Under the pieces are notes generated by a model. It was given only the letters and a program-made list of their open reading frames with translations. It was not told the DNA's origin and ran no database searches. The translations under genes were made by a program, and so were the position numbers. DNA of 40,450 nucleotides from a virus (Duplodnaviria > Heunggongvirae > Uroviricota > Caudoviricetes). Below, in pieces: positions 1 to 35,476 of the stretch. The number at the start of each line of letters is the position of its first letter. Within the stretch, counting starts at the first letter, position 1. Where the stretch lies: IMG/VR virus record IMGVR_UViG_2541047969_000017; one strand, given 5' to 3'.

Positions 1-585
1 CGCTTCGACAGACTCCATCAGGGAGCGTTTGCCGCTGAAGTCATTGTCTTCAAAATCAGCGGTCTGGTTTGCTTCAATCGTGATTTTACGGACTGCCGCA
101 GCTGCTTTTGTTGCCTGAATAGCGTCACCATTAGCATCAAAGCCCACAAGGTAGTCGGCCCAGTCTTCAATCCATTCTGCCAGTGACTTCTGGGAGTTAC
201 GCTCGCCGTTAACAGACAACAGAGCAGAGAACGGTGCTGTCTTTTTCAGTTTGAGAGTGGCGGTGTTATCTGCGTGACCAGGCTCATCAATAGTACCCAG
301 GTTAAGCACACTGACGGCACGCATATTATCGGCATCGATAAAGCAGCGGGTGCCTTCATCCGCAAGATCTTTAGAATAACGGGTAAAGTCATCGATGCTG
401 GCAGTGGAAAGCGCACCACGGAAACGGAAGCGATTTAAATTAAATTTTTCCAGATCATGAATGCGGAAATTCTCAGGTAATGCCACAGCATCGGCACCAA
501 TCTTACTGATAATTTCATTAACACCCTGAGCAGAAATAAGGGCATGGATTTGATTAATTGCGGTTGCGTCTAAGTTCTGAGACAT
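1..585 (-). CDS. Phage early-region protein, DUF2303/YfdQ-like; 3' end runs off the window
   Basis: Minus-strand frame open from ATG at 585-583 to the window edge (at least 195 codons); AGGAC Shine-Dalgarno about 7 nt upstream. N-terminus [22 protein letters not shown] resembles YfdQ-type lambdoid early proteins (recalled). Absent from the ORF track because no stop lies in the window. Confidence 0.55.
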
Positions 586-650
586 AATAAGTCCTCACTA
601 TATAAAGATATTCAGTGATGAGATAAATAATCAGTTTATTAAAAACGATA

Positions 651-1013
651 TTAACGACCAGCTGCGCGGAGTTTTCCGTCAGGTTCACCGGCAAGAGTCA
701 GTAATTGTCCCTGGTCTTCCTGCAGAATAGTCAGGCGACCACCGCGATTGACATACATCGGCGTTTCGGTGGTGTCTTCTTCGGAAATTTTCCCGCGGTT
801 AGTCGGACGAACATATGAGAGTTTGTGTTTTATTTTCACACGGTTCTCATCAAACGGTTCGATTTCCAGGTTGAGCGAGACCTTACCTTTGGTTTTCGTG
901 TTCATCACACCGGAAGCGACTTCACTGAGAACTGCGCCGATTTTGGTTTCAAATACGCCGCCGTCCAGCTCCCCGATAAATTCCTGCACGTTGGTACTGC
1001 GTTCGCTAGCCAT
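651..1013 (-). CDS. Hypothetical phage early protein, 120 aa
   Basis: Track ORF 651..1304 trimmed to the internal ATG (residue 98, MASERSTNVQEF) preceded by GAGGAG; the upstream extension is Arg/Cys-rich and not protein-like. Size and position next to the YfdQ-like gene suggest a YfdP-like protein, but the family is not confirmed. Confidence 0.6.
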   Translation of the reverse strand: MASERSTNVQEFIGELDGGVFETKIGAVLSEVASGVMNTKTKGKVSLNLEIEPFDENRVKIKHKLSYVRPTNRGKISEEDTTETPMYVNRGGRLTILQEDQGQLLTLAGEPDGKLRAAGR

Positions 1014-1148
1014 TTTGCTGCTCCTCATCATATCGACCCTGCAAGGTCGGTTGGTTTCTCCACAAAACAGAGAAGAACACCTGCGGTGGCAGCCGCCCGG
1101 GTGGATTGGGTTATGAGCCCGTCGTCCGGTGATGCTCTTCTCTGTTTT

Positions 1149-1196
1149 GTAAAAAGAGCGGTACCAGCCGGAAGCAAGGGTACAAGCTGGTACCGC
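1149..1196 (-). terminator. Putative rho-independent terminator on the minus strand
   Basis: Perfect 11-bp inverted repeat gcggtaccagc / gctggtaccgc (1158-1168, 1186-1196) with a 17-nt loop; on the minus strand the stem is followed by UCUUUUUAC. Confidence 0.4.
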
Positions 1197-4100
1197 CAGG
1201 ACTGTGGCCGGTGTGATGTCCTGTTGCCATCTGCGTCTCGGGGTCTTTCCAGGGTCGCACGCGAGGTGAGTGGCCCTGCACAGAAGGTCGACTGTCAGCC
1301 TCAACCTTTATCTTTCGCCGCTGAGCCTGCTCCACCACCACGCCAAGGATTCTATTTAGTCGATTATAGCTACCCGCTATGTGGCTGTTCCTAAAATGAC
1401 CTCATCGTTGCGCCCTGGTCTCTCCCCAACCGTCAGAACTCGGCGCCACTGGATGAATCCGTTCTATGAGCAGCATCTTAGATTTGAGCATTCTGTCTAA
1501 ATGGTTTGATTGCGTCGGTAACACGTAGATTATCGACAGTATCGAACGCATCCGACTATCTAAACCTGCCCCACACTCCTCGTTACGATCGAATTTTGAC
1601 TTTTTCTAGTTCGTTCTTCTAGATGGAACGATAAACAACTACTGCGAAGGACGCTTGTGTGTTAGTTCAGATATATGAAGTTTAATGGGTAAAGAAAAGG
1701 TACTCTGTGGCCGCTATGAGACGAGTAAATAAAGGCAAATAGTATGGTTCACAGCTTCTTGACTAGTTGATTAAGTCTTTTCCCGAGGAAATTAAAGCTT
1801 GGTCATTATTGATTGTGAATCCGTCTACATGCTTACTCGTTGTATATGCAGGAGGCAGTAGAGCTGGCACTATCATTTGCTGACGTTAGATTGGTCTTCT
1901 ATAATTAAAATCACACAAATTCTGGGCGTCTCGATTACAATTAGTGATCCCAACACCACCGCAGATGCCAGCTCCTGACTCCATATTTGAGCACTTACTG
2001 TTCCAGATAGCTAAGATGCGATGCATCCTATAGGCTGGCTTTTCGCTAATAACGGATAAAGCAGGACTTCATATGTATTAGACGGCAAGATTGACGGCGT
2101 TCTGACCACTGGTTTGTTCAATGCCATACATCGCACTTGCACTGAGATCATGGTTAACAATACGGAAACCAGCCTTCACAGGTGCATCAACATCGCTAAG
2201 GCTGTGATTATATACAGTCTTGCTTTTCCTGTGTAAAGCACAGAAACAAGCATAATGCACTTCCAAGTTATTTGCATGATTACTCCAGGCCTGTTTGGGT
2301 AATTGGCTCTGAGTTCATGCTGCCTGCCATGTTCTATTAACCGCTTCAACTTGTATTCCTTTGTATAGAGCAGCAATTCTCAAATTTCGCCACTGGGGCA
2401 GTCGGGTAATTCAGGATCCTAAAATAATATGTTTATCAGATGTTTCTAATGCATGTTTAACTCACCTACCAGCCGCAAGATTTAAGGTGATATAATATAC
2501 GGTTCAGGCAATAGATACAGTTCATATGCAATCACATTTACGTAAGATGATCCAACTGCTTTGCATGCCTCTGCATGATCCTGTGGCATGCCTTCAACTA
2601 ATGCGATTGGTTCAGAAGCGAATGAAAAAACAGGAATAAATGCCATGTTCGGAGTCTGGAGTTCTTCAGGCCAACTTCTTTCAGGGAGGAAGAAGCATTA
2701 TGCGATGTGTTTATCCAGCCCGTTACCGATCTAGCTAGAACCACCATCTGTCAAAAACCCGCGGGCCGGGGTTAAGCCGTGAGTAATCATCGTTGGAAAG
2801 TGAGAAATCACGCCAAGTGGTACGCGAAATCTTTCAGCATTAGAACGGCGGAGTTCATGGATTGTTATCCTGAAGATACTAAATGGCTTGATCCGACAAA
2901 GTACGCTTTACTTAACCGTCTACGTCCAGATGGCGATAAGATCTCCCGGGGTAGACGGGCTATGATATCGCAGCGGGCTTCTGTAACTAAAGAAAAGGAG
3001 GACGCGTTCGCCGGGACAGCTGGCGGAACGCCTGTATCGTTACCTCTAATTTAGAAAGGCGAGAACACAGACAGATTTCTGCTGGTGATAAAACTCGACC
3101 AATACATGTCGAGTTCATTTAAGAAATCTCATTCGACAACCGATGTCGATGTAGAAGATCCGCACGACAAGTTCGATTTTTATGCACAATAGGATGTGTC
3201 TAATTGTGGGTTACAGGCACTTGAAGAAAGGAACACAAAAATATTGTTCGGTGAAGAAAGTCGTAACACCGGCCAGGGCGTAGCCCGGTGCTTACGCTCA
3301 ATTTGCGTCCGGGCTGAATCTAACGCAAAAACCGTTAATCGGCAGATATCGGTTTGACGGAGCAGCTAGTGTTCAGTGGCGATGCACAATTGTTTTAAAG
3401 GGATGAAGTGACATTCCCTTCATACCTGACGGTATGTAACAATATACAAATTTCGCCGATGTGTGTCTGCGTGTCGTCCAGGATCTTGACAACGGGTATC
3501 GTGACCGAAGAGTACTGTATGTCCATGAAAATATTGGGAGTCAATAAAAACAGATTCTTACCGAAATTGAAGACGGTGAACTGGAACAGTACTTTAGTCC
3601 ATTGATGAAAGTTAAGCTGTATCTCGTAGTGTGGGAGCTACAGCCGCCAGAAGGATTCTTCCACTCCATCACTTTAGTTTCATAAAGCACTGACTCAAGC
3701 GAGTGCCGAGCTCCGGGCCCCGGAATTCGCCATAACTCTCAAGAGCCCTATGGCTGTTTTGTTGAGCCATAAACAGCAGTACGCCCAAATTATGGGCGCG
3801 TGCGCAAGCCCAAGGACAATTGAACCGGGTGCTTTGCTAAGCAGTAATTGTACCCGTGTACGGCTAAATAGCAATCCGGACGTGGGCAGAGTTGGCGGTG
3901 GGTTATTTCAACTGACCGAAGAAGATAGCCTCATGCGTCCGGTTACACGCCGCTTCAAACCTCAAAACGCCATCCCTGATAGACTGGTTCGTAGGTAATC
4001 GGAAGCACTACGCATTATCTTCTTCAGAGATGGCGACGATGAACAGTACTACAGTCGCACGCATCAATGTTCTCCATAATTCACGGACAGCAAGGTCGGT

Positions 4101-5232
4101 GAGAATGATTAAATTGATCGCACAGGTCTCGAACTGCCTCGCTACCAAAGGCACGGAGTTGGCCATCCGTTCCATGATAGGGCGTCTACCTGATATCAGT
4201 CAGGCCAATGGTATGTGGCAGACATCAATGGAATCAACCACCTGGAAAATCGGCTCGGAGATGAGTACCTTCCGAACGACGATGGCCCTAACGGCAGCAG
4301 ACGGTGTTTCAACACGTCATGAGCTCCTCCGGTGTGACCGCAGTGCGTTGATTCTTTATCGGCATAAGCTTGATCAGCTCTAGCCATTAGCTTTTACGAC
4401 TCTATCAGATTCGGTCCCGCGCAAATCTGCCTCATAAAAATGTGCCCGGTCAATTTTTAAGGCAGGGAGAGCAGATGAAACGGAAGGTTTTCAACCGTTT
4501 GAACATTCAGGGTATCCGTCGTTAAAGTCCGAGCATGATGCACAACATAACAACAGTGCACGTCCTACCGGTTCGCAACGGGACCCGTAGACGTCAGAAG
4601 ATGAGTTTTGAACCCGCGAGCCTGAAGTTGTGGTTCAGTATGCCAAATATCGCCAGTGGGTAAGGAAAGAACATGAAGCCTGCGGAAAGTGCAGCATGAA
4701 TAAGGTGCTGGCCCTGTAAGAGATGAATATCCAATTGGGCAGTCCAGTGGGTAATCCGGATCTACTCAAGTGGACTGCTAATGCCAACGATATGCGTCAG
4801 TGCTGGCTGCGCGACGGGCATATTCATAACCAATGCTACGAGATCAAACGCTCTGTGATGAATCATCTGGTGTGCTTTTGTAAGTCCCTGCGCCCATAGA
4901 AGCTCACGGAGAAAGGGGATGAACGTTACCCACGCTATACCCATTTCCTAAGTACGTACGGTGCAGAACATGCGGTCCGGGACATTACAAACAGTTAACT
5001 CTCCGTGGCCGCAAACCAAATCGCGAGTGCATGAAGGGGACCATGGTGTAGCGCTGAAAAGTCACCCAGAACTTCATTCACTTCCGAACCAGGTGTAGTT
5101 CCGGTGAATTAGCGAATGGTTGTTGGGGTTTCTCCCGACAGGGCGTTCCGAGTTCAGCAAAACAGATACGTCAACTCTGCCGAGTTTCACCAGGCTGTGC
5201 AGGAGTAACACGAACACGCTGCTGGCACTTGA

Positions 5233-5514
5233 AAATCTGCAGCCTTCAAAGCCTGGAAAGCCCGTTTGAATGAGGGGGTAAACCCCGAAACCATGCTGGA
5301 AGGTGTGAAACGCTACGCGGGCTGGGTATCTGCGATGGGTAACAGCGGCACACAATTTGTGAAACAGGCTGTCACGTTCTTTGGTCCGGATCGTCATTTC
5401 GAAGAATCCTGGGAAGTTCCTGCAGTATCTGCAGCCAGACGCGAGGACCCGTACTTCAAAGCCAGTTACGACAACGTGGACTACAGCCAGATCCCGGCAG
5501 GATTCAGGGGGTGA
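5233..5514 (+). pseudogene. 3' remnant of a gene with no start codon or RBS (possibly a replication-module protein)
   Basis: Frame opens right after an in-frame TGA at 5230-5232 and reads protein-like sequence (KSAAFKAWKARLNEGVNPETMLEGVKRYAGWVSAMG...) to the stop at 5512-5514. No ATG or RBS; the track's start is a TTG. Its stop is 2 nt before the next gene's ATG, as in an operon. Confidence 0.4.
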
Positions 5515-5516
5515 TT

Positions 5517-6005
5517 ATGAGTCTTTTGAATGAAGTTCAGAAATTCATTGAAGCCCATCCGGGGTGTACTTCTGGAGACATTGCGGATGCTTTTGCTGGT
5601 TACTCACGGCAGCGCGTTCTGCAGTCAGCAAGCAAGTTACGTCAGAGTGGGCGTGTGGCTCACCGTTGTGAAGGAGATACACGCAGACATTTCCCGCGCC
5701 TGACTGAGAGAGCGCAGGAGCCGGAACCACAATCTGTTCGTGAAACCAGACCTGTGCGCAATTTCTATGTCGGCACTAACGACCCCCGGGTGATTTTGTG
5801 CCTGACCCGCCTGGCTGAAGAACTGGAGTCCAGGGGCTTATTCCGTCGAGCTGCAACGGTGTGGATGGAGGCATTCCGTGAAAGCCACTCCCAGCCAGAA
5901 CGAAACAATTTTCTGGCGCATCGTGAGCGGTGCTTACGGAAAAGCAGCAAGCGCGCTGCATCGGGTGAAGAGTGGTATCTGTCAGGGAATTACGTGGGGG
6001 CTTAA
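5517..6005 (+). CDS. Putative regulator with N-terminal wHTH-like region and C-terminal PerC-like motif
   Basis: ATG at residue 3 of track ORF 5511..6005, GGGGG Shine-Dalgarno 6 nt upstream. C-terminal LESRGLFRRAATVW matches the PerC/Pch LExKGLWRRAA signature as recalled. Confidence 0.5.
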   Translation: MSLLNEVQKFIEAHPGCTSGDIADAFAGYSRQRVLQSASKLRQSGRVAHRCEGDTRRHFPRLTERAQEPEPQSVRETRPVRNFYVGTNDPRVILCLTRLAEELESRGLFRRAATVWMEAFRESHSQPERNNFLAHRERCLRKSSKRAASGEEWYLSGNYVGA

Positions 6006-6658
6006 TGAGTAATAAATATTGCCAGGCGCTGGTGGAGCTGCGGAACAAACCAGCCCATGAACTGAAGGAAGTGGGCGATCAGTGGCGCACGCCGGACAAC
6101 ATTTTCTGGGGAATTAACACCCTGTTTGGCCCGTTTGTTCTGGATCTGTTTACTGATGGTGATAACGCCAAATGTGCCGCTTATTACACTGCGGAAGACA
6201 ACGCGCTGGCGCATGACTGGTCAGAACGTCTTGCGGAGCTTAAAGGTGCTGCCTTTGGTAATCCCCCATACAGCCGCGCGAGTCAGCATGAGGGGCAATA
6301 CATCACCGGCATGCGTTACATCATGAAGCATGCCAGTGCTATGCGTGATAAAGGCGGGCGCTATGTTTTCCTGATCAAAGCTGCCACCAGCGAAGTGTGG
6401 TGGCCGGAAGATGCAGATCATATTGCTTTTATTCGCGGGCGTATTGGTTTTGAACTGCCTGCCTGGTTTATCCCGAAGGACGAGAAGCAGGTGCCGACAG
6501 GCGCTTTCTTCGCTGGTGCTATTGCTGTTTTCGACAAGACCTGGAAGGGACCGGCAATCAGCTACATCGGGCGCGATGAACTTGAGGCATGTGGTGAGGC
6601 CTTTCTGGCGCAGGTTCGCCAGCAGGCGGAAAAACTGCTCAGGGAGATGGCGGCATGA
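6005..6658 (+). CDS. Phage Dam-type DNA N6-adenine methyltransferase
   Basis: ATG at residue 12 of track ORF 5972..6658, overlapping the upstream stop (TAATG). Motifs WRTPDNIF, DLFTDGDNA and GNPPY are typical of phage Dam methylases. Confidence 0.85.
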   Translation: MSNKYCQALVELRNKPAHELKEVGDQWRTPDNIFWGINTLFGPFVLDLFTDGDNAKCAAYYTAEDNALAHDWSERLAELKGAAFGNPPYSRASQHEGQYITGMRYIMKHASAMRDKGGRYVFLIKAATSEVWWPEDADHIAFIRGRIGFELPAWFIPKDEKQVPTGAFFAGAIAVFDKTWKGPAISYIGRDELEACGEAFLAQVRQQAEKLLREMAA

Positions 6659-6981
6659 CGACATTAACTCAATGCCAGCAGCAGGTGCTGGATATGCTGA
6701 TTTCTTACCAGAAAGAACGTGGCTTCCCGCCAACCAATCAGGAGGTGGCAACCATGCTGGGATACCGTTCAGTGAATGCAGCGGTGGAGCATCTTCGCGC
6801 ACTGGAGAAAAAAGGCGTCATCACGATAAAGCGTGGCGTGGCCCGGGGTATCACTCTTCATACCGCGGTGAAGGACGACGACAGCGAGGCGGTCGGGATT
6901 ATCCGCTCACTGCTTGCCGGTGAGGAAAACGCAAGGCTGCGTGCAACCCACTGGTTACATGAGAGAGGCCTGAAAGTATGA
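6655..6981 (+). CDS. LexA N-terminal-domain-like DNA-binding protein
   Basis: Start overlaps the upstream stop (ATGA). Sequence QQQVLDMLISYQKERGFPPTNQEVATMLGYRSVNAAVEHLRALEKKGVI aligns with the LexA winged-helix domain; no peptidase domain follows. Confidence 0.75.
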   Translation: MTTLTQCQQQVLDMLISYQKERGFPPTNQEVATMLGYRSVNAAVEHLRALEKKGVITIKRGVARGITLHTAVKDDDSEAVGIIRSLLAGEENARLRATHWLHERGLKV

Positions 6982-7367
6982 AGCTGATTCTGCCGTTTCC
7001 GCCCAGCGTGAACACGTACTGGCGACACCCCAACAAAGGGGCGTTTGCAGGTAAGAGCCTGATAAGCGCGGCGGGGCGCAAATTCCAGAGCGCGGCGTGT
7101 GCAGCAATAGTTGAGCAGTTACGTCGTCTGCCAAAACCAACGTCGGCACCTGCTTCAGTGGAGATCGTGTTGTTTCCTCCGGATAACCGGATCCGCGATC
7201 TGGACAACTATAACAAGGCGCTGTTTGACGCCCTGACCCACGCGGGTGTGTGGGAGGACGACAGTCAGGTGAAAAGAATGCTGGTTGAGTGGGGACCGGT
7301 TATCCCGAAAGGGAAGGTCGAGATCACTATCAGTAAGTATGAGAAACCGGCGGGTGCAGCCGCCTGA
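6978..7367 (+). CDS. rusA: Holliday junction resolvase RusA
   Basis: N-terminus MKLILPFPPSVNTYW is the RusA signature; 129 aa; start overlaps the upstream stop. Confidence 0.9.
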   Translation: MKLILPFPPSVNTYWRHPNKGAFAGKSLISAAGRKFQSAACAAIVEQLRRLPKPTSAPASVEIVLFPPDNRIRDLDNYNKALFDALTHAGVWEDDSQVKRMLVEWGPVIPKGKVEITISKYEKPAGAAA

Positions 7368-7386
7368 TTAAGAGGAGAAACGAAGT

Positions 7387-8184
7387 ATGAATAATCTGAT
7401 GGTCATTGATGGTATTGAAGTTCGTCGTGATGCTTATGGTCGTTACAGCCTGAACGATCTTCACAGGGCTGCCGGTTCTCTGGATAAGCATAAGCCTGCA
7501 TTCTGGCTCCGCAATGAGCAAACTGAACATTTAATAAGCGAGTTGCAGATTTGCAACTCGGTCAATATAGAGCCAGTTAACGTTATTCGTGGCGGAAATA
7601 ACCAGGGGACGTATGTCTGCAAAGAACTGGTGTATGCCTATGCAATGTGGATAAGCCCGTCATTCCATCTTAAGGTGATCCGTACTTTCGATATGGTAAC
7701 CAGCGTACCGGAAAAATTATCCGGGCAGGCTGCTGACAAGATGCAGGCTGGTGTGATTCTGCTGGACTTTATGCGCCGGGAATTAAATCTGTCTAACTCT
7801 TCAGTGCTTGGTGCCTGTCAGAAACTCCAGGAGGCTGTTGGCTTACCGAATCTGGCACCGCGCTATGCCATTGATGCTCCTGCTGACGCGCCTGATGGCT
7901 CAAGTCGCCCGACGCTGTCACTGAGTGCACTGCTGAAACAGTATGGTATCCGCCTTACGGCTAATCAGGCATATCACCAGATGGCGAAGCTGGGGATCGT
8001 CGAACAGCGCGAACGATACAGCCGTACAGCGATTAACAACATCAAAAAATTCTGGTCGCTGACGGCGAAAGGCTGCATGTTCGGCAAGAACATCACCAGT
8101 CCTGCAAATCCGCGCGAGACGCAGCCGCATTTCTTCGAATCCCGATTCCCTGAGCTGTTAAAGCTGCTCGATACCGTTCATTGA
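7387..8184 (+). CDS. KilA-N domain protein (antirepressor-like)
   Basis: Track ORF with AAGAGGAGAAA Shine-Dalgarno upstream; N-terminal IDGIEVRRDAYGRYSLNDLHRAAG...KPAFWLR is KilA-N-like. Confidence 0.75.
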   Translation: MNNLMVIDGIEVRRDAYGRYSLNDLHRAAGSLDKHKPAFWLRNEQTEHLISELQICNSVNIEPVNVIRGGNNQGTYVCKELVYAYAMWISPSFHLKVIRTFDMVTSVPEKLSGQAADKMQAGVILLDFMRRELNLSNSSVLGACQKLQEAVGLPNLAPRYAIDAPADAPDGSSRPTLSLSALLKQYGIRLTANQAYHQMAKLGIVEQRERYSRTAINNIKKFWSLTAKGCMFGKNITSPANPRETQPHFFESRFPELLKLLDTVH

Positions 8185-34145: not shown

Positions 34146-34236
34146 TAGACTGGCCCCCTGAATCTCCAGACAACCAATATCACTTAAATAAGTGATAGTC
34201 TTAATACTAGTTTTTAGACTAGTCATTGGAGAACAG

Positions 34237-34602
34237 ATGATTGATGTCTTAGGGCCGGAGAAACGCAGACGGCGTACTACACAGGAAAAGATCGCTATCG
34301 TTCAGCAGAGCTTTGAACCGGGAATGACGGTCTCCCTTGTTGCCCGGCAACATGGTGTGGCAGCCAGCCAGCTATTTCTCTGGCGTAAGCAATACCAGGA
34401 GGGAAGTCTTACTGCTGTGGCTGCCGGAGAACAGGTCGTTCCTGCCTCTGAACTTGCTGCCGCCATGAAGCAGATTAAAGAACTCCAGCGTCTGCTCGGC
34501 AAAAAAACGATGGAAAATGAACTCCTTAAAGAAGCCGTTGAATATGGGCGAGCAAAAAAGTGGATAGCGCACGCGCCCTTATTGCCCGGGGATGGGGAGT
34601 AA
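34237..34602 (+). CDS. insC: IS2 transposase OrfA (InsC)
   Basis: ATG at residue 16 of track ORF 34192..34602; [56 protein letters not shown] matches InsC as recalled. Confidence 0.9.
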
Positions 34603-35465
34603 GCTTCGTCAGCCGTTGTCTCCGGGTGTCGCGTGCGCAGTTGCACGTCATTCTCAGACGAGCCGATGACTGGAAGGACGGCCGCCGCAGCCGTCACACG
34701 GATGATACGGATGTGCTTCGCCGTATACACCATGTTATCGGAGAGCTACCCACATATGGTTATCGTCGGGTATGGGCGCTGCTTCGCAGACAAACAGAAC
34801 TTGATGGTATGCCTGCGATCAATGCCAAACGTGTTTACCGGATCATGCGCCAGAATGCGCTGTTGCTTGAGCGAAAACCCGCTGTACCGCCATCGAAACG
34901 GGCACATACCGGCAGAGTGGCTGTGAAAGAAAGTAATCAGCGATGGTGCTCTGACGGGTTTGAGTTCCGCTGTGATAACGGAGAAAAACTGCGGGTCACG
35001 TTCGCGCTGGACTGCTGTGACCGTGAGGCACTGCACTGGGCGGTCACAACGGGTGGCTTCGACAGTGAAACAGTACAGGACGTCATGCTGGGAGCAGTGG
35101 AACGCCGCTTTGGCAGCGAGCTTCCGGCGTCTCCAGTGGAGTGGCTGACGGATAATGGTTCATGCTACCGGGCGAATGAAACACGTCAGTTCGCCAGGAT
35201 GTTGGGACTTGAACCGAAGAACACGGCAGTGCGGAGTCCGGAGAGTAACGGAATAGCAGAGAGCTTCGTGAAAACGATAAAGCGTGACTACATAAGTATC
35301 ATGCCCAAACCAGACGGGTTAACGGCAGCAAAGAACCTTGCAGAGGCGTTCGAGCATTATAACGAATGGCATCCGCATAGTGCGCTGGGTTATCGCTCGC
35401 CACGGGAATATCTGCGGCAGTGGGCCAGTGATGGGTTAAGTGATAACAGGTGTCTGGAAATATAG
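34560..35465 (+). CDS. insD: IS2 transposase OrfB (InsD), DDE integrase-like
   Basis: Track ORF, 301 aa, beginning [30 protein letters not shown]; overlaps insC in the -1 frame. Confidence 0.9.
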
Positions 35466-35476
35466 GGGCAAATCCA

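Follow-up and report, generated by a model that had tools for sequence, protein, structure and literature searches.

The subject of this analysis is the immunity and replication region of a Caudoviricetes sequence, IMG/VR record IMGVR_UViG_2541047969_000017, whose full 40,450 nt are referred to here as the window. Positions 1-8000 are colinear with a prophage of Escherichia coli UTI89 and span exactly 8000 nt there, with flanks that are 95-100% identical and an ungapped middle that is only ~62% identical. The locus is likewise colinear with NU14 and SfV-type prophages, and in all of them it lies between the leftward early genes and the replication/nin-like genes. In UTI89 it holds, in order, an XRE/cI-like repressor, a cro-like helix-turn-helix (HTH) gene, ymfL, a Rha antirepressor, a small hypothetical gene and an HTH replication gene. 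A preliminary description of this DNA, made from its letters alone, had expected immunity and replication genes here, and correctly so: the relatives encode a repressor, a cro-like HTH protein, YmfL, Rha and a replication protein at the locus. By P1 we mean the immunity/replication module of the UTI89 prophage (locus L001, offset +500), the prophage to which the remainder of the window belongs. Further right, 26 kb (8131-34145) are 100% identical to UTI89, and besides the altered stretch the sole other large difference from that prophage is an IS2 inserted in the tail-fibre gene.

The altered stretch itself looks empty of genes. Its longest stop-to-stop frames (1199-5231) are 155, 106 and 92 codons, against 122 +/- 24 in shuffles of the same bases, which bears out the earlier statement that neither strand carries a long open reading frame (ORF). 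The tetramer CTAG, reported to occur at least seven times in 1400-5232, is present exactly seven times there and nine times across the remaining 36.6 kb (binomial p ~ 4e-4, a hand estimate). The right boundary is as sharp as had been described: the final altered base is 5231, and from 5232 on identity to UTI89 is 100% (differences further right, in 6268-8130, are treated below). What had been taken for a gene 3' remnant at 5233-5514 is indeed the intact 3' end of an 819-nt HTH/replication gene (UTI89_RS24740; window 4696-5514). The left boundary has to be moved, because all relatives lose identity at ~1199 and not at 1400. As for the proposal that the stretch is compositionally foreign, it fails for GC content (0.472, against 0.479 and 0.484 in the two native modules introduced here and below) and stands only for the oligonucleotide signature, which is attenuated: the standard deviation of log observed/expected 4-mer frequencies is 0.26 vs 0.44-0.47. 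A scan of 900-5600 against Rfam at gathering thresholds returned no match, so that a structured non-coding RNA locus finds no support there.

Aligned without gaps to UTI89, positions 1400-5231 are 62.7% identical. The differences have a transition/transversion ratio of 0.52 and fall equally on the three codon positions (mismatch 0.367/0.372/0.378; p = 0.84), their variance among bins is binomial and their autocorrelation is zero. Within 1199-1388, the window equals one of two natural alleles, A or B, at 189 of 190 positions, and a scan along diagonals revealed further natural prophage loci whose identity to the window, at shifted offsets, is 60-70%. To de-mix the sequence, only those window bases that differ from UTI89 were retained, the rest were set to N, and the resulting patterns were searched for exactly; they matched 13 and 11 natural IMG/VR contigs, at the proper distance of 411 nt from each other. 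One natural contig, IMGVR_UViG_646862326_000010, accounts for the entire block in a single ungapped register, and so does the second prophage of NU14, a near-clone of UTI89. We call this second contributor P2. It is a module of the ymfK/ymfT/ymfL type and belongs to another prophage found in that strain lineage (NU14, locus L020, offset +6500; in IMG/VR, the reverse complement of locus L017, offset +4194). About 530 complete E. coli genomes carry P2 as a single contiguous natural stretch. The block that results is the following.

1199-5231, no strand: main blended block of 4,033 nt, each base from P1 or P2, none matching neither

With either L017 or the second prophage of NU14 as P2, the number of bases that match neither parent is 0/4,033; partial P2 proxies leave 0-5 such positions per 200 nt (13 in one bin). 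P1 and P2 differ at 3,001 sites, of which the window takes 1,486 from P1 and 1,515 from P2, and it is accordingly 62.4% identical to P1 and 63.2% to P2, while identity between the parents in this register is only 25.6%. Runs of the same parental choice have geometric lengths (runs-test z = 1.37) and a lag-1 autocorrelation of -0.025. In 300 simulated coin-flip blends of P1 and P2 the longest open frame was 149 +/- 29 codons (observed 155) and the CTAG count 8.1 +/- 2.7 (observed 7), against two CTAG in native P1 and zero to one in P2 proxies. Both the missing ORFs and the CTAG count are thus reproduced. The left edge of the block is bounded only: the first P1 choice is at 1204, and with an L017-like partner mixing could begin anywhere from 661, the partner being identical to the window there. 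We rejected a reading in which 1199-1390 is a rare natural allele and the blend starts at ~1400, since this part, too, splits into P1 and P2, has no match above 75% in any E. coli genome, and contains two 24-mers that IMG/VR lacks. For the blend as a whole, identities above 75% were likewise not seen among 5,426 complete E. coli genomes, one 28-mer is absent from GTDB species representatives and JGI metagenomes, and none of six candidate ORFs that overlap it occurs in a collection of 15 billion proteins.

The two parents are superimposed by coordinate and not by homology. P2 is in register solely with the shared left flank (yfdQ/yfdP); its ymfL lies 427 nt rightward of the ymfL of P1, and it reaches the shared right flank 471 nt early, so that the overlay ends at 5231 in the middle of the P2 copy of yfdN. 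An alignment-based consensus was considered and rejected on these two displacements and because MAFFT, in five modes, never aligned P1 and P2 without gaps, inserting 27-48 per sequence across the blended region. Because only the shared left flank fixes the position of P2, whose genes are displaced from their P1 homologues, the overlay is coordinate-wise, and neither an alignment nor a recombination product.

The genes of both parents can still be traced as ghosts. Projected from the annotations (UTI89 coordinates minus 500 for P1; NU14, L020, coordinates minus 6500 for P2), they fall as follows.

1736-2428, minus strand: ghost of the P1 XRE/cI-like repressor (UTI89_RS24715); tblastn 31% over 227 aa, E = 4e-20, in a single frame
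2526-2786, plus strand: ghost of the P1 cro-like HTH gene; full length by tblastn, no frameshift, identity in the range 33-38%
2779-3330, plus strand: ghost of P1 YmfL; full length by tblastn, no frameshift, same identity range
3327-4478, plus strand: ghost of the P1 Rha antirepressor; full length by tblastn, no frameshift, same identity range
4475-4699, plus strand: ghost of the P1 hypothetical gene; full length by tblastn, no frameshift, same identity range
4696-5514, plus strand: P1 HTH/replication gene, with the 5' 536 nt inside the blend and the 3' part (5232-5514) intact; 59.6% over 272 aa overall
2197-2871, minus strand: ghost of P2 ymfK, a LexA-family cI-like repressor (L020 8697-9371); tblastn 36% over 222 aa, E = 5e-38
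2962-3162, plus strand: ghost of P2 ymfT, by coordinates only, with no significant tblastn match
3206-3757, plus strand: ghost of P2 ymfL; tblastn 37%
3933-4112, plus strand: ghost of the P2 DUF4222 gene, by coordinates only, with no significant tblastn match
4102-5043, plus strand: ghost of the P2 HTH replication gene; tblastn 35% over 310 aa
5040-5231, plus strand: ghost of the start of P2 yfdN; N-terminus, tblastn 44%

By tblastn the two gene sets are recovered superimposed and frame-intact. The preliminary description had seen no ORF of protein-like composition and had named the recovery of cI-, cro- or replication-like proteins by translated searches as evidence against its view; such proteins are found for both parents, as full-length ghosts without frameshifts at 31-37% amino-acid identity. 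These ghosts do not amount to a functional lambdoid or SfV-like immunity region: no ORF matches either repressor, the 31-36% tblastn alignments run across ORF-free sequence, and no intact divergent repressor/cro pair is present. Within the intact end of the replication gene (5266-5514), ORFs of 82 and 73 aa carry the annotation 'hypothetical protein' on public E. coli contigs (80 and 60, respectively), some of them complete chromosomes, so this gene is naturally truncated, or called as small ORFs, without any involvement of the blend.

Almost certainly, then, ~1199-5231 is a computational chimera, a sequence that no cell could generate as physical DNA. It is not a real feature, and the immunity genes seem lost only through an artefact in the record. 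The two-parent decomposition, the independence of the choices, their 50:50 ratio and the non-homologous register are direct observations: a fixed ungapped offset leaves none of the 4,033 positions unexplained, and the choice is independent and close to even, with minor deviations discussed below. The earlier observation is therefore largely confirmed, and of the three interpretations then offered only an artificial segment survives, in a more specific form; it was the closest of the three, although 'randomised' does not apply, since two fixed parents are combined with a random choice per site. We propose that P1 and P2 would have been stacked coordinate by coordinate from the shared yfdQ/yfdP left anchor, that at each position one parental base would have been written with a probability of about 0.5, independently of its neighbours, and that the overlay would have halted at 5231 to leave pure P1 thereafter. 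Because the modules are non-homologous in the overlay register (25.6%), such an operation breaks up all reading frames, lets words that are otherwise avoided, such as CTAG, reappear and leaves ~62% ungapped identity to each parent; because it stops at 5231, where pure P1 resumes, it leaves an intact gene 3' end without a start.

As to origin, we infer either a merge or consensus step that broke ties between unaligned, superimposed sequences, or a deliberate in-silico decoy of the 'uniform crossover' kind; the two carry roughly equal weight, with a slight leaning towards a deliberate or scripted operation. Site independence together with an ungapped overlay of non-homologous DNA fits a scripted operation better than assembly cross-talk. 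Synthetic controls such as shuffled or mutated decoys and the uniform crossover of genetic algorithms share with the blend an independent per-site choice of 0.5 at equal coordinates, and no public copy of it turned up in the collections searched. Artefacts at collapsed paralogous repeats, for their part, resemble it in that the contributors are paralogous prophages of one lineage and that P2 alleles are confined to P2-homologous or anchored regions; in such artefacts, however, a read-based consensus depends on alignment and its neighbouring choices are correlated, whereas here the choices are independent (-0.025) and run ungapped across non-homologous DNA. To our knowledge, no read-based consensus gives zero short-range correlation plus an ungapped overlay of non-homologous DNA.

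Several observations sit less easily with an even, scripted coin. At A/G sites, A is taken 289 times vs 206 (p = 2e-4), whichever parent holds it, so the coin is imperfectly fair, and over all sites the base that comes first in the alphabet is taken in 52.6% of cases. There are 22 consecutive P2 choices at 1280-1308, for which we estimate a chance of ~7e-4 under fair flips. Neither the small A-over-G bias nor this run is expected from a plain fair sampler. They might be traces of the tool behind the blend, and they do not rescue a biological reading. Finally, both parents co-reside in one genome lineage and 26 kb of the window are 100% UTI89, which also fits assembly cross-talk between paralogous prophages. 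That the blend sits in a genuine public or laboratory assembly, and thereby exposes an undescribed failure of merging or polishing in which co-resident prophage alleles are superimposed and ties broken at random, seems to us possible though rather unlikely. A de Bruijn-graph bubble or contig end was also considered for the stop at 5231 and rejected: in P2 this point falls 93 nt inside an exact repeat of 110 nt, implying k ~94-95, a value suggestive of nothing particular, and bubble resolution is incompatible with per-site switching at single-nucleotide polymorphisms 2-12 nt apart.

If only the UTI89 parent is considered, the data resemble random in-silico point substitution that redraws ~50% of sites, or a native P1 module that was partly shuffled: the mismatch of 0.373 equals 0.5 x 0.75, the transition/transversion ratio is about 0.5, and there are neither indels nor a codon-position bias. 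Yet about two thirds of the changed bases should then differ from P2, and actually all 1,515 are the P2 base; the replacement bases are thus not unrelated to another sequence (189/190 positions in the early comparison, then 4,033/4,033, are parental), and the de-mixed patterns match natural contigs exactly, which makes either operation extremely improbable. Natural decay, that is, a pseudogenised immunity/replication region of a cryptic prophage, was among the options first raised, and the lack of intact ORFs, the ghost similarity to repressor, cro and replication proteins and a somewhat degraded IS2 elsewhere in the prophage could be read in its favour. The mutation spectrum is not that of natural decay, however: the 4,033 nt hold no indel, transitions are not in excess (0.52), codon positions 1-3 are equally changed, and every changed base is the one found in a second, non-homologous sequence. 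The flanks are not at a comparable distance from UTI89 but 100% identical to it over 26 kb, which leaves no time for a divergence of 37%, and we regard decay as exceedingly unlikely. Replacement of the early region by heterologous non-coding DNA through horizontal transfer, which had also been suggested, would agree with the enrichment of CTAG relative to the rest of the window and with the lack of a close match in near-identity BLAST searches; GC content is nevertheless equal to that of the native modules, and two ordinary E. coli prophage modules, each 62-63% identical to the stretch without gaps, explain every base, so that the probability of such a replacement is vanishingly small.

A real molecule would require either a fine-scale mosaic generated by recombination or heteroduplex repair between co-resident prophages, or chemical synthesis. 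The presence of both parents in the same genome lineage is compatible with this, as are the P2 alleles in a P1 background in the homologous flanks, where the block form could be genuine gene conversion. Within the main block, however, parents that are 25.6% identical in register make heteroduplex formation or homologous exchange impossible, and there are ~1,500 parent switches per 4 kb with geometric run lengths. The product encodes nothing, a repressor included, and the prophage would therefore not be maintained. Even the homologous segment 6203-7255 shows 12 switches over 27 sites, two of these sites being just 2 nt apart. We know of no recombination, repair or decay process that produces such a pattern, and consider a real molecule highly improbable.

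With the native UTI89/NU14 module (the prophage at 4.99 Mb) the blend shares the position between yfdP and a PerC/yfdN-like gene, the length to the base and 62.4% of sites, but half of the informative sites are overwritten, and the survival of any ORF, promoter or operator cannot be assumed. The ymfK/ymfT/ymfL-type module of the second NU14/UTI89-lineage prophage, near ssrA, supplies the other half (63.2%) in one ungapped register; naturally it stands in its own prophage, whereas in the blend it is laid on P1 out of homologous register and cut in mid-yfdN.

Biologically, the stretch holds no new element, RNA or defence system, and its value is methodological. An exotic-looking, ORF-free and CTAG-rich insert turns out to be fully explicable as two ordinary sequences laid over each other, and the de-mixing test that revealed this, masking the bases that agree with the closest relative and searching with the remainder, can be reused as a quality check. 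Should the window derive from a real assembly, its record is unfit for inferring the immunity type, inducibility or gene content of the prophage. If the failure of a merging or polishing tool is the true cause, silent 'ghost' regions could exist in other deposited genomes, where two-parent decomposition could find them.

P2 alleles are also found outside the main block, on both of its sides, in the following segments.

1-1198, minus strand: left flank (3' part of yfdQ, yfdP and a frameshifted hypothetical gene), common to both prophages and the anchor that places P2 in register
6203-7255, no strand: second site-wise P1/P2 blend, in homologous register (P2 shifted by -471), over methyltransferase, LexA-like and RusA genes

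At each of the 39 sites that distinguish P1 from P2 in the left flank, the window equals one or the other, in blocks rather than site by site (P1 at 103-124, P2 at 208-361, P1 at 472-660 except 478, and P2 at 804-1186). To the right, all 26 differences from UTI89 in 5232-34145 lie within 6268-8130, and each is the P2 allele in homologous register. Judging from its allele pattern, 6203-7255 is a second, smaller blend of the same kind: its 27 informative sites (6268-7079) comprise 12 P2 and 15 P1 alleles, with 12 switches and no new allele. Its bounds are set by the nearest pure-P1 sites, 6202 and 7256. A natural third haplotype was rejected for this segment, the window having no private allele vs at least four in every natural intermediate haplotype among 95 loci compared. 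At 7905-8130, P2 alleles again take block form (14 of 16 sites). Both 1-1198 and 7905-8130 depart from UTI89 solely where the co-resident P2 prophage does so too, and their allele combinations occur in no complete E. coli genome (best 99.3% and 98.7%, respectively); the P2-allele blocks in these two segments could reflect gene conversion between co-resident prophages or be part of the same construction or artefact.

A GC-rich inverted repeat (GGTACCAGCCGGAAGCAAGGGTACAAGCTGGTACC) lies in 1150-1198, downstream of yfdP and just left of the point at which the prophage types diverge; it could be a terminator or a mosaic-boundary element. The IS2 (IS3 family; 1,331 bp, 34146-35476) interrupts the prophage tail-fibre gene. 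Its insertion site is absent from UTI89, the junction occurs as one continuous match in 0 of the 5,426 complete genomes, a junction 35-mer is absent from IMG/VR, and the IS2-truncated tail-fibre protein is absent from the 15-billion-protein collection. The element is bordered by a 5-bp target duplication (CTGCC), has intact orfA and orfB, and is 99.8-99.9% identical to IS2 copies elsewhere.

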